From contig CAKUFK010000008.1 of assembly GCA_934647945.1 (NCBI GenBank), positions 3,815 to 67,814 on the forward strand: a stretch of DNA of 64,000 nucleotides, written 5' to 3'. Under the pieces are notes generated by a model. That model saw only the letters and a program-made list of their open reading frames with translations, did not search any database and was not told the origin of the DNA. Of this stretch, positions 29,596 through 38,455 are shown one piece after another (the first letter of the stretch is position 1; every line of letters starts with the position of its first letter). The DNA comes from an uncultured Eubacteriales bacterium (GTDB taxonomy: Bacteria > Bacillota > Clostridia > Oscillospirales > Acutalibacteraceae). A program made the position numbers and the translations under genes.

Positions 29596-31137
29596 GTGAA
29601 AAAAGCCACTTTTATCAAAAACGCCTTCATCCTCACCGCCACTTCCCTGTTGCTGCGGACGATCGGGATCTTTTTCCGCATCTATATGTCCAACAAGGTC
29701 GGCGCCGAAGGCATGGGCTTGTATCAGCTGATTTTCTCGATCTACGTCCTGGGCTCCACCTTTGCCACCTCGGGGATCTCCACCGCCGTCACCCGCCTGG
29801 TTGCGGACGAACTGGTCTGCGGGACACCCAAATCGGTCCGTCATATCCTGCATCGCGCCATTGCGCTGAGTCTCCTGATCGGTGCCGCCTCCACCGCTCT
29901 GATTTTCTTTGGGGCGGATATCATCAGCGCGTACTGGATCAAGGACATGCGGGCGGTACCCGCCCTCAAGATCCTCTGCTTCAGCCTGCCGTCGATGGGC
30001 GTCTCCTCCTGCCTGCGCGGCTATTTCATCGCCCGCCGCAAGGTGGGCAACCCCTCCCGGGCGCAGATCCTGGAGCAGGCCGTCCGCATCGCGGTGGTCA
30101 TGCTTCTCATCGACCGGTTTGCCTCCATGGGGATCGCCTACGCCTGCATGGCCGTCATGATCGGGGACACGGTTGCGGAATTCGCATCCTGCGGCCACAT
30201 GGCCCTCGGCTATTTCCTGGACCGGAGGCGGCTGAAAAAGGAAAGCTTTCCCAGCCGGTCCCCCAAGCCCGCCTATCCGGTTGTCCGGCGGCTGCTGTCC
30301 ATCGCCGCCCCTATCACCGCCGGCCGGTATCTCAATTCCATCCTGCGTACCATTGAAAATATCCTGGTCCCGAGCTGTCTGGCTAAGTATACCTCCTCCA
30401 AAGAAACCGGGCTGTCCCAGTTCGGCATGCTCAAGGGCATGGCGATGCCCCTCATCTTCTTTCCCGCCTCGTTTCTCAATGCCCTGTCCACCCTCCTCGT
30501 CCCCGAGATTTCCTCGGCCGCGGCTCTCGGGCATAAGGGCACGGTCAACCGGGCGGTCAAGCATACCCTGCATATCACCCTTCTAGCCTCCATCCTCATC
30601 AGCGGCGTCTTTACCGTCTTCGCCAAAGAATTCGGCTTACTGCTCTACGGCAGCGAGGAGGTCGGCTTCTATTTGCAGGTCCTGGCGCCCTTAACTCCCA
30701 TCATGTACCTGGAAAGCGTTGTGGACGGTATCCTCAAAGGCCTGAACCAGCAGGTCAGTTCCTTAAAATACAGCGTGGCCGATTCCACCATCCGCATTGT
30801 CCTGATCTTTTTCCTCGTGCCGGTCCGCGGGATGGAAGGATTCCTGTTTATCATGGTGCTGAGCAATATCTTCACCTCCTTCCTCAATCTCCATCGCCTT
30901 CTCACCGTGACCGGCGTCAAGCTCGCATGGGGGCAGTGGATTCTCAAACCCATCCTGGCAATCACAACCGCCGGCGCCGTGGCGCTGCTGCTCGGCCGTT
31001 TCCTGCCGTTTGTGCATCTCTCTATGCTCGTCTGGCTGATCGCCGGCATCGCATGCCTGTGCCTGATCTACGGAATCCTGCTCCCCCTGCTCGGTTGTAT
31101 CACACGTGACGACCTGCATCGCAGCGTCAGCCACTGA
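29596..31137 (+). CDS. spoVB: Stage V sporulation protein B (MOP-family flippase)
   Basis: 513 aa with a GTG start. MKKATFIKNAFILTATSLLLRTIGIFFRIYMSNKVGAEGMGLYQLIFSIY is the characteristic SpoVB N-terminus. Polytopic membrane protein. Confidence 0.82.
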   Translation: MKKATFIKNAFILTATSLLLRTIGIFFRIYMSNKVGAEGMGLYQLIFSIYVLGSTFATSGISTAVTRLVADELVCGTPKSVRHILHRAIALSLLIGAASTALIFFGADIISAYWIKDMRAVPALKILCFSLPSMGVSSCLRGYFIARRKVGNPSRAQILEQAVRIAVVMLLIDRFASMGIAYACMAVMIGDTVAEFASCGHMALGYFLDRRRLKKESFPSRSPKPAYPVVRRLLSIAAPITAGRYLNSILRTIENILVPSCLAKYTSSKETGLSQFGMLKGMAMPLIFFPASFLNALSTLLVPEISSAAALGHKGTVNRAVKHTLHITLLASILISGVFTVFAKEFGLLLYGSEEVGFYLQVLAPLTPIMYLESVVDGILKGLNQQVSSLKYSVADSTIRIVLIFFLVPVRGMEGFLFIMVLSNIFTSFLNLHRLLTVTGVKLAWGQWILKPILAITTAGAVALLLGRFLPFVHLSMLVWLIAGIACLCLIYGILLPLLGCITRDDLHRSVSH

Positions 31138-31143
31138 TCACAC

Positions 31144-31173
31144 AAAAGCCCGCTCTGACAAGCGGGCTTTTTT
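31144..31173 (+). terminator. Intrinsic terminator after spoVB
   Basis: AAAAGCCCGCT-CTGACA-AGCGGGCTTTTTT. Confidence 0.75.
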
Positions 31174-31181
31174 AATGCCTC

Positions 31182-31210
31182 TTGAAATTTCGTCCAACAT
31201 GTCTTATACT
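31182..31210 (+). promoter_or_regulatory. Candidate sigma-A promoter at the left edge of the AT-rich segment
   Basis: TTGAAA-17 nt-TATACT. It lies about 240 nt upstream of the ECF sigma gene, so assigning it to that gene is tentative. Confidence 0.3.
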
Positions 31211-31337
31211 ATAGGAGTTACCACAATTTGTATGTATTTAAATTAGGAAATAAGGGTTTACCTTTGGCAATCCATAGAATAGTCAATAAAAAATTACTGA
31301 AATTATACAATCACTACCACAAATTCCCATTTTAATT

Positions 31338-31389
31338 GTGAAACACTCTCAATTTGCTTTATCGGCCGCCTATATATTCAGTGTTTCAC
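31338..31389. promoter_or_regulatory. Perfect 10-bp inverted repeat GTGAAACACT...AGTGTTTCAC (32-nt spacer) just upstream of the ECF sigma gene
   Basis: Arms at 31338-31347 and 31380-31389. The left arm contains a GAAAC element of the kind seen in ECF -35 boxes. Confidence 0.4.
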
Positions 31390-31447
31390 GATCCATAAAC
31401 GAAGAATAGACGAAATGCATTTCACATTAGAAGTGAGAGGTGATCCA

Positions 31448-32005
31448 ATGGCAGAAGGACCCATGGAAGAAGCCTATATGCGCTTCCTGTCGGGTGAAAT
31501 GGACGCATTCGAAATCATTGTGAAGGAACTGCAGATGCCGCTCATCCACTTCATCAATCGTTACATTGGCAACACATCGATTGCGGAAGACTTGGCAGAG
31601 AACGTGTTTGTGGAAATCCTGCTGCATCGGGACCGGTACAACTTCAAGGTCAAGCTGAAAACGTATTTGTTCACCATCGCGCGGAATACCGCCATCGATT
31701 ATATTCGGAAGAATAAACGGCTCGCTCCGTATGAGGTGGACGAGGATTTCAGCCCGGATACCCGGCTCCATGCGTCACCCGAGGAAGCGTATCTGGCAAA
31801 AGAGCAGCGAGATACGATCGTGGATCTGATCCAAACTGTAAAAGGCGATCAAGGAACCGCACTATACTTGACGTTGGTGGAAAACCTCTCAAACGAAGAA
31901 GCAGCCAGAGTTATGAAGAAGAGCAAGAAACAGATTGAGAATCTGTTGTTTCAGGGCAGACGGAAAATCCGTACTTTAATTGAGAAAGAAGGGATTCTCA
32001 CATGA
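31448..32005 (+). CDS. ECF-type (group 4) sigma-70 family sigma factor
   Basis: Part of ORF 31415..32005. Start at ATG 31448, after GAGAGGTGA. Region 2: IAEDLAENVFVEILLHRDRYNFKVKLKTYLFTIARNTAIDYIRK. Region 4: LYLTLVENLSNEEAARVMKKSKKQIENLLFQGRRKIR. Visibly lower GC than the flanking genes. Confidence 0.85.
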   Translation: MAEGPMEEAYMRFLSGEMDAFEIIVKELQMPLIHFINRYIGNTSIAEDLAENVFVEILLHRDRYNFKVKLKTYLFTIARNTAIDYIRKNKRLAPYEVDEDFSPDTRLHASPEEAYLAKEQRDTIVDLIQTVKGDQGTALYLTLVENLSNEEAARVMKKSKKQIENLLFQGRRKIRTLIEKEGILT

Positions 32006-33102
32006 AAAACACACAACAATTCTGTGAGAGCATCTATCATAAATATGAACTGGCACTGGAAACTAGACGCGAAAAACAACGTGTGCGCTTCATGATCGTA
32101 CAGCGCTCGGCTGCCGCCGCCGCAGTCGTGACGGTGGCGGTGGGTTCCTCTGTATTCATCATCCATCAGAAGGACGGAAAACTGCCTGTCACGCCCGGCG
32201 CTTCCATCTCCGCGTCGAAGGATCCGGCTGGGCGCGCCCTGATCACCACCGTATCGGCGGGGCTGATGGCCGATAATTTTATTCCCAATATGATTCCGCC
32301 TAGCGGAGAGGTGCTATACAGCTCGTCCCTCGATGAGCTGGTGGGCAGCGAGGAGACCGACGGAGCCCTGTTCCGTCTGTCGGTCTCTATCTACGGCGAC
32401 ACGGAGGACGCCAAGGACGGCGTCCGCGCCCAGTGGGAGCAGCAGGGCCTGTCGGTCGAGGATCCGGTTGCTGACGTCCCCGGCGACTGCATCGTCACCG
32501 TTGACAAGGAGCAGATCGACCAGCTCGCCGGCGAAGACTTCGGTATCTTGGCCCGCCTGGCGCCCGCTGTCCGGCCGGAGGGATATGACCGCCGTCTGGG
32601 CGACCTCGCCGCCAACTGGGCCGAAACGGCCGGCGACCAGGATGTGGTAAACGTCATGATCTTTACCGTTTGGGGGAAGGCGTCCTACACTGCCGTGCCC
32701 AATTCCGACCTCTTCCGCGAAGAGGATTTTCTGTCGGCTCTCGAGGGCCTCACCCCTCTGCCCAAGCCGGCTTCGTCCCCGACGGATTCCGCGGAGTCCA
32801 TGGCACTTTTGGAGCAATACGTCGCGAACCAGACAAATATCCGGACTGCCGCCGAGGCTGTCATGAACGATGCGCTCGACGCCCTGTGCGCCCGCGTCGG
32901 CCTGACGAATATCCGTACCAGGCGCGCGGTGTTTGGGATGCCCGAGGCCCCCGCTCCCGGAGAGGCGTTCACCTGGGAGGGACACTGTGAATCCACCGCC
33001 TACATCGACGCCTACGTGACCAAGGCGCAGCTCCTCGCTCTCGCCGAGGACAGCGGTGTGCGGTATGTGCACCTCGTCAGCGAAGGATACGAGCTCAACT
33101 AG
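32002..33102 (+). CDS. Single-pass membrane protein, putative anti-sigma factor with a tandem subtilase-prodomain-like ectodomain
   Basis: 366 aa. Its ATG overlaps the sigma stop (ATGA). It has a ~35-aa cytoplasmic head with no zinc-finger motif, one TM (AAAAAVVTVAVGSSVFII), and a ~310-aa extracytoplasmic part. Two modules end in CIVTVDKEQIDQLAGEDFGILARL and TAYIDAYVTKAQLLALAEDSGVRYVHL. Confidence 0.55.
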   Translation: MKNTQQFCESIYHKYELALETRREKQRVRFMIVQRSAAAAAVVTVAVGSSVFIIHQKDGKLPVTPGASISASKDPAGRALITTVSAGLMADNFIPNMIPPSGEVLYSSSLDELVGSEETDGALFRLSVSIYGDTEDAKDGVRAQWEQQGLSVEDPVADVPGDCIVTVDKEQIDQLAGEDFGILARLAPAVRPEGYDRRLGDLAANWAETAGDQDVVNVMIFTVWGKASYTAVPNSDLFREEDFLSALEGLTPLPKPASSPTDSAESMALLEQYVANQTNIRTAAEAVMNDALDALCARVGLTNIRTRRAVFGMPEAPAPGEAFTWEGHCESTAYIDAYVTKAQLLALAEDSGVRYVHLVSEGYELN

Positions 33103-33260
33103 GCTGAAAAAGCCGTATGTCTCAGGCCGGTGCGGGAACGTACCGGCTTGCGGCGTGTCCGGCTTTTCGATAAAATCCGACAGAAATCGGGAGAGGGGGC
33201 GGCCTATGCGGTAGCGGGAAACGGCATACAGGCAACTATAGAAAGGGGAAGTTCTAAAAC

Positions 33261-35054
33261 ATGAAGTGGAAAACCAATTGGAAAAAGGGCCTGCGAAACG
33301 GGATCTGCATCGGCACGCTGCTGCTGTTCCTGTTCCAGTTCGCGGCGATGGCGCAGGAGGGCGGCACCGCTGCCCAGGAGGAGCCGTCGAAGATCTCCCC
33401 CCTGCTGCTGGAGGCCTTCGCCCAGCAGCCCGCGCCCATGAGCCTGGACGCCCAGGCCGAAGCCCCGACCGTGCCCACCGCGGTGTGGATCACCGATACC
33501 GACCTCACGGAAGCCGCGGCCGCGGCCGCGGCGAGCTCCGGCCTGCTCTCCACCGCCCCGCTGGCGGCGCCCCTCAGCAGCCTGGAAGCCTCGGCCACCA
33601 TGCCGATCTCCACCGCGCCCACCAATGAAGAAAACCCCGACGCAGTGCAGGACTACATAGAGGCCAAGCGTCTCGCGTCCCGGACACTGTACGCCGAGCA
33701 GAACGAGGCCTTTGCGGCGGACCATTTCGACCAGGAGGATATCCTCTACATCAGCCAGTACTCCCCTCTCGTCCTGGTCAACGTCACTCTGGATGAGGTG
33801 TACGACCTGACCCGGTATGACGAGGTCTCCTACCTGGATCACTACCAGTCCGGCGCGGAGCTGCAACTGACCAACGCCGTCAGCGCTTCCCGCGCCGACT
33901 ATGTGCGGGACACCAAGAACTACAAGGGCGGCGGCATCAAGGTCGGCATATTGGACGGCCACATCACTAACACGGCCGGCCTGCCCTCCTCCATCACGGT
34001 CAAGCCCGAAAACGTCTATAACTACGAGAATTGCATGCATGCGAAGCGGGTCGCTAAAATCATCATGACCATGGCCCCCAACGCCACCTATTACGCCGCG
34101 TGGGCGGACAATTACATCACCAACATCGAATGGCTCCTCTCCCAGGGGGTCAACGTCATCAACATCAGCGGCGAACTGGGAGCCCATTATCCAAATACCA
34201 TCACCTTCGCCACCACCTGGCTCGACCACGTCGCCTTCAACCACGACGTACATCTGGTGCTCGCGGCCGGAAACAGCGGTTCGGCCGGCGTCAACTCCGC
34301 CGGCATGGCCTTCAACGCCATCACCGTCGGGTCGTACAACGACCACAACGGCACCAACACCTCCAATTTCACTGTATCGAGCTTCTCCTCCTACATGCCC
34401 ACGAAACTCAACGATGTCGCCTCCAAGCCCGACATCCTGGCGCCGGGGGAGAACATCTCCATCTCGGTGGACGGGACGACGGTCGAGGCAGACGGCTCCA
34501 GCTTCGCCGCCCCCTTTGTCACCGGCACGGTCGTCTATATGTGCCAGGCCAATACCTCGATGAAGATCCGGCAGGACGCCGTAAAGGCCGCGCTCGCCGC
34601 CTCCTGCTTCGACGTCCACTACACGCCGTCGGAGACCGGCTACCGGACATGGGGGAACGGTGCGCTGAACTCGCGTTACGCCTGGACGGTGGCGAAGGAC
34701 AGCCAGTTCCGTTATGGCATCATCACCAGCACCGATCCGGCTACCTTTACTTATACCTTCTCGACCTCCTCGGCCTCCACCTATGAATTTGTGGCGCTCA
34801 CCAATCTGCGTTATTCGAAGTTCTCCTCCGGCGACCATACGGGAGATCCGGTTCATGACGGGTATCCGCCCGATCTGGATCTGAGAGTGTACAACAACTC
34901 CACCAACGCCCTGGTTGCGAGCAGCACCATGGGAACCTGCTGGAACGTAGAAAAGGTCGGCTTCCCCACCGGCGGTGCCAACACCTTCCGCATCGAGGTG
35001 ACACACGCAGGGGAACGCAGCCAAAACGGCTATTTTGGCGTAGCCTGGTATTAA
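33261..35054 (+). CDS. Secreted subtilisin-like serine peptidase (family S8) with an N-terminal prodomain-like region and a C-terminal beta-sandwich (PPC/P-domain-like)
   Basis: 597 aa. Signal peptide MKWKTNWKKGLRNGICIGTLLLFLFQFAAMAQE. Catalytic motifs: VGILDG (Asp), MHAKRVAKII (His), AAGNSGSAG (oxyanion Asn) and DGSSFAAPFVTG (Ser). The prodomain-like end LVLVNVTLDEVYDLTRYDEVSYLD precedes the catalytic domain. Confidence 0.88.
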   Translation: MKWKTNWKKGLRNGICIGTLLLFLFQFAAMAQEGGTAAQEEPSKISPLLLEAFAQQPAPMSLDAQAEAPTVPTAVWITDTDLTEAAAAAAASSGLLSTAPLAAPLSSLEASATMPISTAPTNEENPDAVQDYIEAKRLASRTLYAEQNEAFAADHFDQEDILYISQYSPLVLVNVTLDEVYDLTRYDEVSYLDHYQSGAELQLTNAVSASRADYVRDTKNYKGGGIKVGILDGHITNTAGLPSSITVKPENVYNYENCMHAKRVAKIIMTMAPNATYYAAWADNYITNIEWLLSQGVNVINISGELGAHYPNTITFATTWLDHVAFNHDVHLVLAAGNSGSAGVNSAGMAFNAITVGSYNDHNGTNTSNFTVSSFSSYMPTKLNDVASKPDILAPGENISISVDGTTVEADGSSFAAPFVTGTVVYMCQANTSMKIRQDAVKAALAASCFDVHYTPSETGYRTWGNGALNSRYAWTVAKDSQFRYGIITSTDPATFTYTFSTSSASTYEFVALTNLRYSKFSSGDHTGDPVHDGYPPDLDLRVYNNSTNALVASSTMGTCWNVEKVGFPTGGANTFRIEVTHAGERSQNGYFGVAWY

Positions 35055-35070
35055 TTCATCCAAATCTTAT

Positions 35071-35110
35071 ATAAGAAAACAGCCGCTGAGGACAGCGGCT
35101 GTTTTCTTAT
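35071..35110. terminator. Perfect 18-bp-stem bidirectional terminator after the S8 gene
   Basis: ATAAGAAAACAGCCGCTG-AGGA-CAGCGGCTGTTTTCTTAT. Confidence 0.8.
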
Positions 35111-35570
35111 ATGGGGCGATTCAACTAAAATACATATATATTTTTAGTGATATATACAAAACCGAGCAATTTCGTCATTTTTGGATTATATTGTCAGTGC
35201 TATTTCTCAATTAAACGAATAATTCGCGGAATGATAAACATTCCGGGGTTCGGAGACAGGTTATGGAGATGCTGTTTTCCACGTTGGGGATAGGCCGGCG
35301 GAAGGATGCCAGTCATCTGTGCATCCGCAAACAAAAACGGTAAGATGTTTGCAACCGGCTTTCGAGTTTCCTCTTAATGTGCGGATTAAGAGATCGATAA
35401 TCCTTGTGGGAAAACAGTCTGGTGGCGGATTCCATGTCGGCGGATGATGTTTCACCTCTATAACCTGTCTTTCCGATTTCCTTGATGAAAATCGTTTCAT
35501 CTAAAATGGAAGGCCGATAGTGCCTGCTCGGCAGGTATTCATTTTTTACGCTGCAAAAGGGGTGCCGAAC

Positions 35571-36209
35571 ATGAACACAAAGCCGCTGTACAATACCGAA
35601 TTGTCCAACCCTCCCGCCGCACTGATCCGATTGACAGATATCTGGGAAAACGACATGGTTCCTAACCAATCACCGGGGCGCAAACGCTCGCCGGGGCGCA
35701 ATGCCAAAGTGAGGCAATGCATCGATATACCATTGGCCATGGAACTGCGTGGGGCGAGCCAGTACGCAACCAAAGTGGTACGGGTATGCACCGTGCTGGA
35801 CAATATGACCAGCCGCGCTCAAAATCAAGAGCTCTTTCGTGAAATTGAACTGATCACATTGTTAGATGGCTATGATCTTCCGGAAGAACAGGAGCTTGTG
35901 CCTTTGTCGGTTCATCAATGGGACATCCCCCTATCCCATTCCGAGTGGGAGAACAAATATAAAGACATCCCCTATCGGATTTATATCCGGATCGGTGAGT
36001 ACATTGGATTGGATCTGGATACATTATGCAAAAGGCACCGCATTTCAGGCAAAAGACACTATGCATTGAATTTGCCACAGCCGTCGGCACCGAACTGGAA
36101 GAGCGCACTCGGCATCACAGCGTATGTCGAGGCGGAACTGACCAAGCAGCAGATTCAGCGTATTGCCGTCGACAAGCGCGTTCGGCTGATCCAAGGCGTG
36201 GAGCCCTGA
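35571..36209 (+). CDS. Hypothetical leaderless protein whose C-terminus is paralogous to the anti-sigma ectodomain module
   Basis: Part of ORF 35520..36209. Start at ATG 35571 (MNTKPLYNTE), after AAAGGGGTG. No signal peptide or TM. The C-terminus ITAYVEAELTKQQIQRIAVDKRVRLIQG aligns with STAYIDAYVTKAQLLALAEDSGVRYVHL, with 11 identities in 28 by eye. Confidence 0.5.
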   Translation: MNTKPLYNTELSNPPAALIRLTDIWENDMVPNQSPGRKRSPGRNAKVRQCIDIPLAMELRGASQYATKVVRVCTVLDNMTSRAQNQELFREIELITLLDGYDLPEEQELVPLSVHQWDIPLSHSEWENKYKDIPYRIYIRIGEYIGLDLDTLCKRHRISGKRHYALNLPQPSAPNWKSALGITAYVEAELTKQQIQRIAVDKRVRLIQGVEP

Positions 36210-36227
36210 CTACTACATATCCACTAG

Positions 36228-36271
36228 AAAACAGCTGGAAAGGCCCGAAGGGCTTCCCCAGCTGTTTTCTG
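36228..36271. terminator. Bidirectional terminator between the hypothetical gene and rnr
   Basis: AGAAAACAGCTGG...CCAGCTGTTTTCT, with an inner GGCCC-GAA-GGGC. Confidence 0.75.
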
Positions 36272-36277
36272 TTCCTT

Positions 36278-38455
36278 TCATTGCTCGGATACAGCCGGCA
36301 CAAAATTGATGAAACCGGCGGAAATATCACAGGATGCCACTTGGATGGTCATACTGTCTCCGATGGTATACCGTTTCTTCCCGGCCGGGTCGCACAGCGA
36401 CGCCATCGTGTCATAGGATAAAGGAACCCCGTCTATCTCGCTGAGCAGCTCCACACGGACGAGCCCCTCCACAGTGTTGGGCAATTCTACATAGACACCG
36501 AAATCGGTGACGGCGCTGATGGTTCCCGTGAACACCTTTCCCAAATACCCCGCCATATATTCGGCCTTATAGCAATCTTCACACTGCCGCTCCGCCGTCA
36601 TCGCCCGAATTTCGCAGGCAGTGGATTCATCCGCAGCCGCGGCGGAAAAGCTTTCATAGCGTTCAAACAAGGCGGCTCGGGGGGTGTGTGCCAGCACATC
36701 GGACAAAATCCGATGTATGGCCAGGTCGGGATAGCGCCGTATAGGCGAGGTAAAATGGCAATAGTCCTCCAACGCCAATCCATAATGCCCCAAGGGATTG
36801 TGACTGTACACCGCCTTTGCCATAGAGCGGAGCAGTCGGTCGGAAACCAGACGGGCATAAGGGGTTTCCCGGGCTTCTTCCATCAAGGAACGCCACTGTA
36901 TTTTCGAAATTTCCTCCGGCAGCGCAGTTTTCATTCCCAGTGACCGGGCCAGATCCGCCAGAATCTTCAATTTTTCCGGATCCGGCTGCGCATGCACGCG
37001 ATAGACAAACGGCAGCTTTTTTCTCCTGGCCAGCGCTGCGACTGCCACGTTGGCCGCAATCATAAACTGTTCAATCATGCCCTCCGCCTCCCCTGTCAGA
37101 CGGGGCTGAATGAGCAACGGGTGGCCTTCGCCGTCCAATGTAAACTGCGCTTCCGTACTGATCAAATCAACGGTTCCCCTTTGCTCACTCGCTTCACGCA
37201 TCCGTCCGGCTATCAGCCGCATCGCGTCGAGAGACGATTGGACGGGATGGTATTTTTCCTGTATCTCTTTCGTCGCAGTGTTCTGGAACAGATCGTTGAT
37301 TTCGCTGTATACCCCTCGTACTTTGGAACGGATGATGGCTTTGGTCAGGCGGACATCCCGGCACACGCCCTGTTCATCCAGTGTCAGCAACGCGGAAAGC
37401 GTCAGCTTGTCCTCCCCAGCACCGAGCGAGCACAGCCCATTGGAGAGCGCTTCCGGGAGCATAGGGATAACCCTGTCGGCAAAATACACCGAGGTCCCCC
37501 GTTTCATGGCCTCCCGATCCAGCGCAGATCCCGCCGTGACATAATGGGACACATCCGCGATATGCACACCCAGGAGCCAGCCGTCCCCCTTCCTTTCCAG
37601 GGACACCGCGTCGTCCAGATCTTTGGCATCCCGGCCGTCGATGGTGAAAATGCACCATTCCCGCAGGTCTTCCCGGTTTTCCCTTTCCCTGTCGGAAATT
37701 CCCCTCTCCCGCTGACTCTCCGCCTCGGCGAGCACCTCGGCCGGAAAGACATGGGGGATTCCCGCGCTGTCGATAATGGCATCCGCGCAGATCCGCGCGG
37801 AGTCGGCACTGCCGTATACCGTTTCCACGCGGGCTGTCAGCTCTCCCTTTGCGGTATAGGCGAGCGAAAACCGCACCTTATCCCCCGGCACGGCCCCGCC
37901 GAGGGCCGATTTTTTGACCGGGACGGGAAAACGGACGGCGGCGTCCGGCTGCACAGAGCAGCCCGTTTCATCCTGCCTCAGGCGGCCGCTGAACAGACGG
38001 CCGCCTGCCTCTTCGATCTGTACGACCACCCCCTGTGGCCCCCGTTCATCATAGGCCCCGAGCCGGATGAGGATACGGTCACCCGGCAAGGCATCCCCCA
38101 GGTTCCGTCCAGCGATGAAGCAGTCCTCCCCTTCGTCCAGGCGGGCAAAGCCAAAGCCGCGTGAAAGCGACAACAGCCGCCCGTGGACGCAGCCGGCTGT
38201 TTTTGGCAAACGGTACTTGCCTTTTTTGCTTTTTTCCAATTCTCCCGCATGTTCGAGGGCTGCAAGCGCGGCCCAAAGGGCGGGACGTTCGTCTTTACGC
38301 AGCCGCAGCTCTCCCGCCAGCATATCCCCCGTCATGCCCTTGGCCCGCCGGCTGAGCTTCCGCAGGATCCGGCCCTTCAGATCCCCATTGCGGTTCGTCT
38401 GCCGTTTGCCCACCGCCGCTTGATTGGTTTTCGATTTTGCCATATCATGCACCAT
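36278..38455 (-). CDS. rnr: Ribonuclease R
   Basis: 725 aa. N-terminal HTH/cold-shock-like region (GFGFARLDEGEDCFI), RNB catalytic domain (TIDGRDAKDLDDAVS) and C-terminal S1 domain (GTISAVTDFGVYVELPNTVEGLV). The start may instead be ATG 38443. Confidence 0.93.
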   Translation of the reverse strand: MVHDMAKSKTNQAAVGKRQTNRNGDLKGRILRKLSRRAKGMTGDMLAGELRLRKDERPALWAALAALEHAGELEKSKKGKYRLPKTAGCVHGRLLSLSRGFGFARLDEGEDCFIAGRNLGDALPGDRILIRLGAYDERGPQGVVVQIEEAGGRLFSGRLRQDETGCSVQPDAAVRFPVPVKKSALGGAVPGDKVRFSLAYTAKGELTARVETVYGSADSARICADAIIDSAGIPHVFPAEVLAEAESQRERGISDRERENREDLREWCIFTIDGRDAKDLDDAVSLERKGDGWLLGVHIADVSHYVTAGSALDREAMKRGTSVYFADRVIPMLPEALSNGLCSLGAGEDKLTLSALLTLDEQGVCRDVRLTKAIIRSKVRGVYSEINDLFQNTATKEIQEKYHPVQSSLDAMRLIAGRMREASEQRGTVDLISTEAQFTLDGEGHPLLIQPRLTGEAEGMIEQFMIAANVAVAALARRKKLPFVYRVHAQPDPEKLKILADLARSLGMKTALPEEISKIQWRSLMEEARETPYARLVSDRLLRSMAKAVYSHNPLGHYGLALEDYCHFTSPIRRYPDLAIHRILSDVLAHTPRAALFERYESFSAAAADESTACEIRAMTAERQCEDCYKAEYMAGYLGKVFTGTISAVTDFGVYVELPNTVEGLVRVELLSEIDGVPLSYDTMASLCDPAGKKRYTIGDSMTIQVASCDISAGFINFVPAVSEQ

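Follow-up and report, generated by a model that had tools for sequence, protein, structure and literature searches.

A gut clostridial ECF sigma locus with an anti-sigma ectodomain related to the propeptide of the neighbouring S8 subtilase, and a possible protease-coupled switch

Sigma factors with extracytoplasmic function (ECF), paired with anti-sigma factors, form the third most abundant signalling system of bacteria, and for most ECF groups we know of no identified input signal. We have analysed a 64,000-nucleotide stretch, "the window" in what follows, of contig CAKUFK010000008.1 from an uncultured Eubacteriales bacterium of the Acutalibacteraceae. Between spoVB and rnr, the window carries the genes of an ECF sigma factor, a coupled single-pass membrane protein that we treat as its anti-sigma factor, a secreted subtilase of family S8 (referred to as S8) and a leaderless protein of 212 amino acids (aa), the orphan, in this order. 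By profile comparison, the ectodomain of the anti-sigma factor is made of two modules that are distant paralogues of the S8 propeptide, and from lineage to lineage its final residues change in step with the junction predicted between propeptide and mature protease. These observations suggest that the input to this sigma factor may be the cell's own protease.

Four genes between spoVB and rnr

The features of the locus are collected in Table 1, in which all coordinates are those of the window; profile matches here and below are to Pfam and NCBIfam models, with bit scores set against the cutoff of the model. The genes, the terminators and the uneven composition that the original prediction had read from the DNA letters were all recovered, at most a few bases away from where it had placed them, and so was its S8 peptidase with a signal peptide and an intact Asp/His/Asn/Ser set (D232, H260, N338 and S414). 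The G+C content is as low as 0.34 at 31150-31449 and 0.39 at 35050-35349, and it is 0.45-0.50 in the sigma gene against about 0.60 in the surroundings. The same prediction had regarded the block as an insert between spoVB and rnr; a recent insertion is not upheld, since the identical four-gene slot is present in diverged lineages. All complete loci of the lineage have the same four genes between spoVB and rnr, the orphan included, and the co-conservation of sigma, anti-sigma, S8 and orphan on which that prediction depended holds in every relative with a complete locus. Relative to the window proteins, SpoVB of these lineages is about 90-92% identical, RNase R 76-80%, the sigma factor 66-75%, S8 53-70%, the orphan 45-66% and the anti-sigma factor 47-49%. 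As the four genes share the slot despite this protein divergence, the block is older than the split of these species, and on sequence grounds it is an old one, vertically inherited inside the clade. All close homologues of the membrane protein belong to assemblies of uncultured "Ruminococcaceae" from the human gut, and a scan of genome contigs gave three species. In one relative (L003, 9275-11206; L numbers denote loci) the S8 gene is broken into open reading frames (ORFs) of 520 aa and 88 aa, that of the near-identical L004 being intact, and the split reflects either pseudogene formation or a fault in the assembly. A role in sporulation or germination, to which the spoVB neighbour and a weak PDB match to a germination protease (E 3.5e-4) could have pointed, was rejected, because the spoVB context is found only in this lineage and the other lineages have unrelated neighbours.

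The sigma factor matches Sigma70_r2 (PF04542) at 2e-15 and Sigma70_r4_2 (PF08281) at 2.3e-6, and it scores 78.6 bits with the ECF superfamily model TIGR02937 against a cutoff of 42.9, its length being 185-196 aa depending on the start. A named ECF group was not reached: the best NCBIfam subfamily, TIGR02950 (SigM family), gave 90.1 bits against a cutoff of 147.95. The membrane protein has the position, the N-in topology and the conserved cytoplasmic segment that argue, from sequence, for an anti-sigma factor of this sigma. Indeed, its cytoplasmic segment of about 35 aa is the best-conserved part of the protein, F7, C8, E9, S10, Y12, K14 and Y15 being invariant among 20 homologues (alignment A1). 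Moreover, an ECF sigma gene lies directly 5' of members of the family in four distant lineages (L010, L011, L012 and L014), which supports the assignment; in L013, only a partial and weakly sigma-like fragment is found upstream. Pfam and NCBIfam gave no significant match to the known anti-sigma families (class I ASD/zf-HC2, RskA, RsiV and DUF4179/DUF4367), and neither for this protein nor for the orphan did any other family of the two databases reach significance. Homologues are scarce, 24 having been found by word-indexed search and 37 by exhaustive profile search, and a word-indexed search seeded with the 23 anti-sigma relatives of alignment A2 recovered just one distant member.

The model of S8 matches subtilisins in Foldseek searches at 1e-15 to 1e-25 (typically about 1e-16). 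Its top PDB match is ProN-Tk-SP (3afg, E 5.6e-25, 614 aligned columns), with an alignment that spans the propeptide, the catalytic domain and the C-terminal beta domain. The alignments of the latter reach the beta-jelly-roll/beta-barrel C-domains of Tk-SP and KP-43, and PF04151 (PPC) was recorded in S8 relatives. In the AlphaFold2 (AF2) model, the propeptide consists of helix 47-54, strand 71-77, helices 83-93 and 126-155, strands 161-164 and 170-175, helix 177-183 and strand 189-194; this topology, and the position N-terminal to the catalytic domain, fit a propeptide at aa 40-201, with a predicted maturation site. In about half of the S8 clade the catalytic Asp is replaced by Glu (29 E vs 33 D among the S8 ORFs scored, L015-L057); these Glu-type enzymes retain His, Asn and Ser, and their partners end in acidic residues. 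In L012 (7311-7430), 3' of a distant sigma/anti-sigma pair, a 39-aa ORF joins a signal peptide to the ending ..NVYFGVVWR*, which resembles the S8 ending ..GYFGVAWY*; the similarity is weak, and the ORF may be the remnant of a deleted S8 gene.

Table 1. Features of the spoVB-rnr interval and its flanks, in window coordinates (AF2, AlphaFold2; pLDDT, predicted local distance difference test; TM, transmembrane)
Feature	Position	Strand	Evidence or remark
spoVB	29596-31137	+	TIGR02900 E 2e-93, 313.7 bits, under the 372.3 cutoff
Bidirectional intrinsic terminator 3' of spoVB, upstream block boundary	31144-31171	both	-17.6 kcal/mol, z -5.0; scan hit on minus strand
SigmaA-type promoter candidate TTGAAA-17-TATACT	31182-31210	+	10/12 consensus positions
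CAGTG-N16-CGAA, candidate ECF-dependent autoregulatory promoter	31379-31403	+	Kept 5' of sigma in all lineages
Perfect palindrome GAAATGCATTTC in sigma leader	31412-31423	+	Invariant in 6/6 lineages
ECF sigma factor, 185 aa	31448-32005 (alternative upstream ATG 31415)	+	Sigma70_r2 and Sigma70_r4_2
Anti-sigma membrane protein, 366 aa, single-pass	32002-33102	+	ATG overlaps sigma stop as ATGA
Cytoplasmic N-terminal segment aa 1-35 and TM helix aa 36-56	32002-32169	+	Basic residues before TM helix
Module M1, aa 104-186	32311-32559	+	AF2 pLDDT 80-90
Linker PAVRPEGYDRRLGD	32560-32601	+	Family motif LAPAVRPEGYDRRLGD when L186-A187 is prepended
Module M2, aa 201-366, including tail ..SEGYELN-COOH	32602-33102	+	AF2, profile homology
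Hairpin in anti-sigma/S8 spacer, 9 bp	33126-33147	+	Aligned in six lineages
S8 peptidase, 597 aa	33261-35054	+	PF00082 65.1 bits vs 21.8 cutoff
S8 signal peptide aa 1-31, ending AMA/QE	33261-33353	+	Cleavage site by eye
S8 N-terminal propeptide aa 40-201	33378-33863	+	Disordered insert aa 96-125
S8 catalytic domain	33864-34700	+	D232, H260, N338, S414; predicted mature N-terminus near L202
S8 C-terminal all-beta domain aa 481-597	34701-35054	+	AF2, eight strands
Strong terminator 3' of S8 gene	35069-35112	+	-31.2 kcal/mol, z -11.2
CAGTG-N16-CGAA, second copy, candidate ECF-dependent orphan promoter	35195-35219	+	Kept in all aligned lineages
Structured RNA leader of orphan, about 250 nt	35227-35478	+	Conserved fold, RNAalifold
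Terminator-like hairpin and T-run just 5' of orphan ribosome binding site, possible attenuator	35520-35548	+	Weak: -11 kcal/mol, z -0.8
Orphan, 212 aa	35571-36209	+	Without signal peptide; alternative GTG 35520 adds none
Bidirectional terminator common to orphan and rnr, downstream block boundary	36225-36271	both	-31.7 / -31.5 kcal/mol per strand; z of the three block terminators between -5 and -11
rnr	36278-38455	-	TIGR02063 602 bits, over cutoff

Propeptide-like modules and the C-terminal tail

The AF2 model of the anti-sigma ectodomain, with pLDDT of about 80-93 across aa 80-360, contains two tandem beta-alpha-beta-beta-alpha-beta modules, M1 and M2. M1 comprises helix 108-114, strand 123-131, helix 135-147, strands 151-153 and 163-168, helix 169-174 and strand 180-186. 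M2, with a structured core at aa 201-358, comprises helix 201-209, strand 215-224, helices 240-247 and 264-299, strands 304-312 and 330-340, helix 341-348 and strand 355-358. The linker between them carries LAPAVRPEGYDRRLGD, the best-conserved motif of the whole family with the general form LAxPxRxEGY, in which R191 and Y195 never vary, and L186, A187, G194 and, further on, D201 hardly ever do, among 23 sequences of 17-26% identity; a function of the linker as a cleavage or docking site would be speculation. The distant relatives at this level of identity are in part anti-sigma-like transmembrane proteins and in part lipoproteins, and all of them retain the linker motif together with a C-terminal TKEQxLxLAxDxxV. 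A 605-aa lipoprotein, P0056, holds two full M1-linker-M2 units in tandem, so that the two-module unit can itself be duplicated.

From a motif seen by eye in the membrane protein, the protease and the orphan, the original prediction had proposed that the ectodomain resembles the prodomain of the protease. The motif is real and beyond chance, being the C-terminal beta-alpha-beta of a family to which, by profile, the anti-sigma modules belong together with the S8 propeptide and the orphan. The proposed resemblance held in part: the two modules are related to the S8 propeptide by profile, and neither a significant I9 match nor a prodomain among the Foldseek matches of the ectodomain was obtained. 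M2 and the orphan are similar even pairwise (BLASTP E 1e-7 over anti-sigma aa 234-357; hhalign 98%, E 1.7e-13, 143 columns), and aa 59-208 of the orphan form one M2-type propeptide-like domain that lacks the tail mimic described below. M2 aligned with the N-terminal region of S8, aa 36-200, over 132 collinear columns when A2 was compared with A4, an alignment of 21 S8 homologues down to 25% identity (hhalign E 4e-5). The score of 34.2 stands about 7 standard deviations above block-shuffled controls (15.6+-2.7, n=60, none above 26.2); reversal of the profile gave 13.5. M1 aligned with M2 at E 6.9e-5, with a score of 32.4 vs 19.5+-3.0 for shuffled profiles. The signal between M2 and S8 emerged with broad alignments only; with narrow ones, the anti-sigma modules and the pro-region of S8 aligned in hhalign without significance (E 0.12-0.3).

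Hidden Markov models (HMMs) were also scanned against 2,863 ORFs from 97 loci. The HMM built from anti-sigma M2 alone matches S8 N-termini at 2.6e-5, 3.8e-5 and 4.2e-4, over HMM positions 4-135 of 139, and every one of its matches in S8 falls between the signal peptide and the catalytic domain. Upon iteration it recruits 80 S8 propeptides, and the iterated M1 HMM also matches M2 regions. In the other direction, an HMM built from S8 propeptides alone matches the L014 anti-sigma factor (5e-4) and stand-alone neighbours of S8 (1e-7 to 2e-5). Moreover, the order of structural elements is alike in M2 and in S8 aa 47-194: a leading helix, a strand, a helix, a disordered loop, a long helix, a hairpin, a helix and a strand. 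It is therefore very probable that M1, M2, the orphan and the S8 propeptide belong to one common domain family; on this profile evidence the S8 propeptide has three distant paralogues at the locus, two in the anti-sigma ectodomain and one, of the M2 type, in the orphan.

The anti-sigma factor ends exactly at the register of the predicted S8 propeptide/mature junction. In a gapless hhalign register, its last residue, N366, is opposite Q201 of S8, and the following S8 residue, L202, is 30 aa before D232. In subtilisin BPN', the mature N-terminus is 31 residues before D32, and the modelled S8 helices 204-209 and 212-218 and strand 227-232 fit a BPN'-like layout. Leu365 is invariant in 20 of 20 anti-sigma factors, and every one of these proteins ends one residue later. 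The remaining tail residues follow the junction of the cognate protease. In the window group the anti-sigma C-terminus is [Y/A/F]-E-L-[N/Q] and the S8 junction is A-[E/D]-L-Q / L; in L008 the tail G-E-L-L meets G-E-L-L / L, in L001 G-V-L-L meets G-K-L-L / L, and in the L003 group [Y/F]-[T/V]-L-L meets A-T-L-I / D. In the Glu-type S8 clade, partner tails and junctions are both acidic (L016 ..GGIDE vs ..ACEDE/L; L035 ..GGMDD vs ..ESED/L). Cognate tail 4-mers were scored against the junction window and compared with permuted pairings: 21 pairs gave 8.10 vs 4.36+-0.72 permuted, nine clade representatives gave 8.33 vs 4.70+-1.04 (P=1.4e-4), and the acidic-tail clade alone gave P=0.008, all of these being statistics that shared ancestry inflates. 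The last residues of the anti-sigma factor thus co-vary with the predicted junction, a pattern that would be expected from a propeptide mimic docking into the active site in product form.

Gene neighbourhoods and regulatory sequences

A metagenome scan with alignment A4 added 80 loci, and about 51 non-redundant S8 clusters outside the lineage of the window were available. In 16 of these clusters an M1-family gene is near the S8 gene (within about 0.7 kb among the representatives), a different propeptide-like protein is encoded beside S8 in 3 further clusters, and in 13 the distance to an ECF sigma gene is no more than 2 kb; since many of the contigs are short, these counts are minima. In all of these cases, S8 is at least about 29-30% identical to the window S8, and no M1 match farther than about 1.8 kb from the S8 ORF was seen in these S8-seeded loci. 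The survey of gene neighbourhoods thus shows that distant lineages again place this S8 clade beside propeptide-like partners and ECF pairs.

Three S8 homologues of 30-37% identity each have a module-1 protein alongside. In L015, the S8 gene is preceded by those of an ECF sigma and a DUF4367 anti-sigma and followed directly by that of an M1 lipoprotein, and in L016 an ECF sigma and an M1-only anti-sigma lie directly downstream of S8. L017 (8938-10366) belongs to a cellulosome-type locus with many dockerin genes, in which S8 is followed by two paralogous secreted M1-dockerin proteins. The propeptide-like partners of the S8 clade therefore come in three formats, as anti-sigma factor, as lipoprotein and as dockerin protein. 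In addition, the gene that follows the family member of L011 has an N-terminus that matches the propeptide HMM at 6e-7. A four-gene variant was observed in L034 (5297-9482) and L055 (5563-9488), with an ECF sigma, an anti-sigma whose ectodomain is different or hardly detectable, a separate M1 lipoprotein and then S8. The propeptide-like partner can therefore be either fused to the anti-sigma or separately encoded.

Both hexamers of the sigmaA-type promoter candidate are kept in 6/6 aligned diverged lineages, and a leader of about 240 nt separates it from the sigma gene; it probably acts as a promoter of this type. The pattern AGTG-N16/17-CGAA has just two matches in the 64 kb, one 5' of the sigma gene and one 5' of the orphan, with identical spacing, and both copies of CAGTG-N16-CGAA are candidate ECF-dependent promoters. 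Each is followed by a symmetrical element: the palindrome GAAATGCATTTC sits just 3' of the sigma-proximal copy, and a similar hairpin, G(G/A)AATG..CATT(C/T)C (GGAATG..CATTCC in the window), is found at 35227-35245 after the orphan copy. Either could be an operator or a 5' stem-loop. The hairpin in the spacer between the anti-sigma and S8 genes shows compensatory changes (T-A to C-G and G.T to A-T), and CCGGCTTTT stands 14 nt 3' of it; it may act in attenuation, processing or RNA stability, perhaps as an incomplete terminator or a site of processing by which the levels of S8 are uncoupled from those of sigma and anti-sigma.

The orphan is preceded by a conserved structured RNA leader. A 23-bp closing helix pairs 35245-35268 with 35456-35476, and RNAalifold gave -65.8 kcal/mol with compensatory changes at 16 pairs, internal helices included. 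In the alignment 92.8% of cells pair, and covariation, resting on about four independent lineages, is 0.326 vs 0.196 in shuffled alignments (0/500) and at most 0.14 in slid registers. Covariance search of the leader against Rfam found no family, the matches being terminator-driven, below the gathering score and outside the element. Hairpins with T-runs equivalent to the possible attenuator at 35520-35548 are also present in L001 and L008. The leader is thus a candidate new riboswitch or attenuator.

A possible protease-coupled switch, its alternatives and known systems

Two further observations bear on how the protease and the sigma factor could be linked. In L027 and L029, S8 is encoded convergently to sigma and anti-sigma, with a perfect 12/12 promoter of its own of the form TTGACA-16/17-TATAAT; a convergent gene with a sigmaA-type promoter of its own suggests that S8 is, in these loci, an input to the switch and not its output. 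Within the species, the window (32240-34700) and the conspecific L005 (8240-10690) differ by an exchanged region. With values of 0.15-0.30 for the anti-sigma ectodomain and of about 0.10 for codons 1-480 of S8, its synonymous divergence (dS) is 10-100 times that of the flanking genes and the S8 C-terminal domain (0.003-0.016 for spoVB, sigma, orphan, rnr and S8 codons 481-597), and the ratio of non-synonymous to synonymous divergence (dN/dS) in the region is 0.3-0.6. The shared elevation of dS indicates that the ectodomain and the propeptide/catalytic part of S8 were replaced jointly as an allelic cassette. Such a cassette is compatible with a co-adapted pair, and it could equally be one contiguous recombination tract.

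The explanation that we favour, at a probability of roughly 0.45, is a protease-coupled ECF switch in which the anti-sigma factor would be a receptor or substrate of mature S8, in the form of a tethered pseudo-propeptide. From the homology, the adjacency and the co-variation of the tail we infer binding, cleavage and a direction of the signal as follows. The secreted and autoprocessed S8 would bind the membrane-tethered M2, possibly also M1, like its own cleaved propeptide, with the free C-terminal tail of the anti-sigma factor occupying the S4-S1 pockets. The ectodomain would act as a temporary inhibitor, as a cognate propeptide does, and would then be degraded. Its truncation would be the site-1 event, which would open the anti-sigma factor to intramembrane cleavage at site 2 and thereby release sigma. 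Sigma would then drive transcription from both CAGTG-N16-CGAA promoters, that of its own operon and that of the orphan, for which the structured RNA leader would be an additional gate. The net result would be a cell that registers active protease on its surface while small amounts of the enzyme are buffered. Of the parts of this scheme, a direct interaction between the propeptide-like domains and S8 is probable, and for a signal that runs from S8 to sigma we would give not quite an even chance. A bolder version, which we regard as doubtful, would make S8 a dedicated site-1 protease or activating ligand and the anti-sigma ectodomain a pre-cleaved copy of its propeptide. If this version is true, the locus would be a bacterial counterpart of the eukaryotic order of site-1 protease (S1P) before site-2 protease (S2P), reading extracellular protease activity as transcription; a structured RNA would gate a cytoplasmic paralogue, and elsewhere the module is found with this protease clade as a partner anchored through a lipoprotein or a dockerin.

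Several results weigh against the switch, besides the inflation of the tail statistics mentioned above and the fact that the S8 maturation site used for the tail register is itself a prediction. The window S8 is downstream of and co-directional with sigma and anti-sigma, so it could also be an output, and L010 and L014 have the ECF sigma and no S8 within the 5-8 kb of downstream contig available. The count of CAGTG-N16-CGAA is not enriched in the window (2 found vs 3.2 expected), and 5' of the sigma and S8 genes of distant systems neither this motif nor any common bipartite motif was found. On the side of homology, M1 compared with the S8 propeptide alone is not significant (hhalign E 0.044), the profile of the S8 propeptide had no match among PDB sequences, and pairwise BLASTP of the anti-sigma factor or the orphan against S8 is not significant, the cognate pairs of L027, L029 and L011 included; this lack of similarity between cognate proteins points to an ancient paralogy and not to a recent copy. 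The structure search brought no likeness of the ectodomain to a prodomain: when the complete anti-sigma model was compared with the PDB by Foldseek, no subtilase prodomain was among the matches, and the best matches of the ectodomain are generic ferredoxin-like or ACT-like folds (tandem ACT-type and Cas6-type ferredoxin folds, E >=3.6e-3), none at E 1e-3 or better. The similarity to Pfam I9 that had also been expected is likewise without a significant match for any part. Inhibitor_I9 (PF05922) and Tk-SP_N-pro (PF18237) are absent at E <=1 from the window anti-sigma, orphan and S8, and 24 propeptides of the S8 clade gave marginal values only (PF18237 0.032 in two members, PF05922 0.067 in one). 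With these I9 searches negative, the modules are best called paralogues of this S8 clade's own divergent propeptide and not members of Pfam I9.

Three other explanations have to be considered. Propeptide-like proteins could be mainly tethered regulators of S8, inhibitors, foldases or anchors attached through a membrane segment, a lipid or a dockerin that keep the protease inactive or assist its maturation, likened to stand-alone I9 inhibitors or to the PrtM lipoprotein of lactococcal PrtP. The fusion to an anti-sigma factor would then only co-ordinate expression, and some other envelope signal would destroy the anti-sigma factor, releasing sigma and unleashing the protease. Stand-alone propeptide-like partners with no sigma nearby (L017, L036, L039, L040 and L057) speak for such a role, and so does a tail that mimics the product end of a propeptide, which in subtilases is the inhibitory and not the cleaved configuration; the orphan, without tail and signal peptide, would fit a chaperone-like function. 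We nevertheless consider this explanation rather unlikely. The cytoplasmic N-terminus is the best-conserved part of the anti-sigma factor, and translational coupling ties the anti-sigma gene to that of sigma in every lineage, so that control of sigma is not incidental; in other respects, the explanation overlaps largely with the protease-coupled switch and differs mainly in what triggers degradation.

It appears improbable that S8 is only a regulated target, with an ectodomain that serves as an ACT-like tandem-ferredoxin sensor of a small molecule or envelope cue and a propeptide likeness that reflects remote common ancestry and no present interaction. The co-directional position of the window S8 downstream of the pair and the family members of L010 and L014 with no adjacent S8 would suit this idea, as would the Foldseek matches of the ectodomain, the best of which are tandem ACT regulatory subunits, PII and acylphosphatase-like folds; yet these matches are not significant, none reaching E 1e-3. 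Moreover, it leaves unexplained the propeptide-like partners beside S8 in loci without sigma, the exact C-terminal register and the cognate co-variation of tail and junction, the sigmaA-type promoters of the convergent S8 genes, and the joint allelic replacement of ectodomain and protease. Finally, likeness and adjacency could both be due to chance, with generic beta-alpha-beta units matching each other through helix/strand periodicity. The insignificant pairwise BLAST, the negative Pfam and PDB searches and the small alignments (20-24 sequences) leave room for this, and it is made very improbable by profile scores 4-7 standard deviations over block-shuffled and reversed controls, by HMM matches in both directions that always fall in the right region and cover nearly the full length, and by an adjacency that recurs in at least 16 independent gene arrangements.

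The nearest known relatives of the proposed system are of different kinds. With the subtilase propeptides and I9-type inhibitors (BPN'/E, ProN of Tk-SP in 3afg, SUB1), the domains share the beta-alpha-beta-beta-alpha-beta topology, the location directly N-terminal to an S8 catalytic domain, the occurrence of paralogues in separate genes and a C-terminal tail that matches the P-side of the maturation site, here a predicted one. A stand-alone propeptide-like inhibitor of Plasmodium SUB1 is a eukaryotic precedent (PMC6993865). The present domains differ from that group in having no significant Pfam I9 or Tk-SP_N-pro match, in their leading helix, in the long inserted helix and disordered loop of M2 and the S8 propeptide, and in the fusion of the paralogues to an anti-sigma factor, a lipobox or a dockerin. 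RsiV, the anti-sigma factor of sigmaV in Bacillus subtilis and its relatives, is a direct receptor of lysozyme and is cut by signal peptidase. It too is a single-pass anti-sigma factor, and the ectodomain at our locus would likewise bind a folded enzyme and license site-1 cleavage and intramembrane proteolysis. However, the enzyme sensed by RsiV is foreign, whereas here it would be self-encoded and may itself cut, and by Pfam and NCBIfam RsiV has no sequence relationship to the window anti-sigma factor.

The ectodomains of RsgI anti-sigma factors reuse modules of the secreted enzymes under their regulation. Common to both systems are a sensor domain borrowed from an enzyme family encoded nearby, an occurrence in Clostridia and, on our side, the cellulosomal setting of the related locus L017. 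The RsgI/sigmaI pairs of Clostridium thermocellum (PMC10328401) are thus a useful comparison. On the other hand, RsgI partners a SigI-type and not an ECF sigma factor, its modules bind polysaccharide substrates, and it is activated through autoproteolysis of a conserved juxtamembrane domain that is absent from the window anti-sigma factor. The proposed logic of an extracytoplasmic serine protease acting first and an intramembrane protease second is that of site-1 proteolysis, as in DegS/RseA and PrsW/RsiW, or in eukaryotes S1P, itself an S8 subtilase, acting before S2P on SREBP. Structures of S1P do occur among the Foldseek matches of the S8 model; recognition through a propeptide mimic would be new, and cleavage at our locus is presumed. 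In Lactococcus, the S8 cell-envelope proteinase PrtP has an adjacent maturation lipoprotein, the PrsA-like foldase PrtM. An S8 gene likewise adjoins a lipoprotein partner in L015, L034, L039 and L055, although PrtM is unrelated to propeptides and PrtP/PrtM involves no sigma factor. Our literature search found neither an anti-sigma factor with a protease-propeptide ectodomain nor a bacterial anti-sigma factor that uses an S8 site-1 protease, and the main text of the ECF reclassification paper does not mention subtilases. The proposed wiring of an ECF/anti-sigma pair through a propeptide-built sensor is thus apparently undescribed and would be a new sensor principle.

The analysis defines an unannotated domain family in Clostridia of the human gut and of the rumen or fermenters, together with a candidate new cis-regulatory RNA. 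Moreover, the sequence evidence points to a concrete input for an ECF sigma factor, namely the cell's own secreted subtilase, recognised through a mimic of its propeptide. If this is true, an anti-sigma factor acting as a pseudo-propeptide would be a new principle of sensing and the first S8-dependent anti-sigma pathway in bacteria. The modules would then be cognate-specific ligands of subtilases, with a specificity apparently set by a short C-terminal tail, and such tail-set specificity could be useful for the construction of protease-responsive switches or specific inhibitors.

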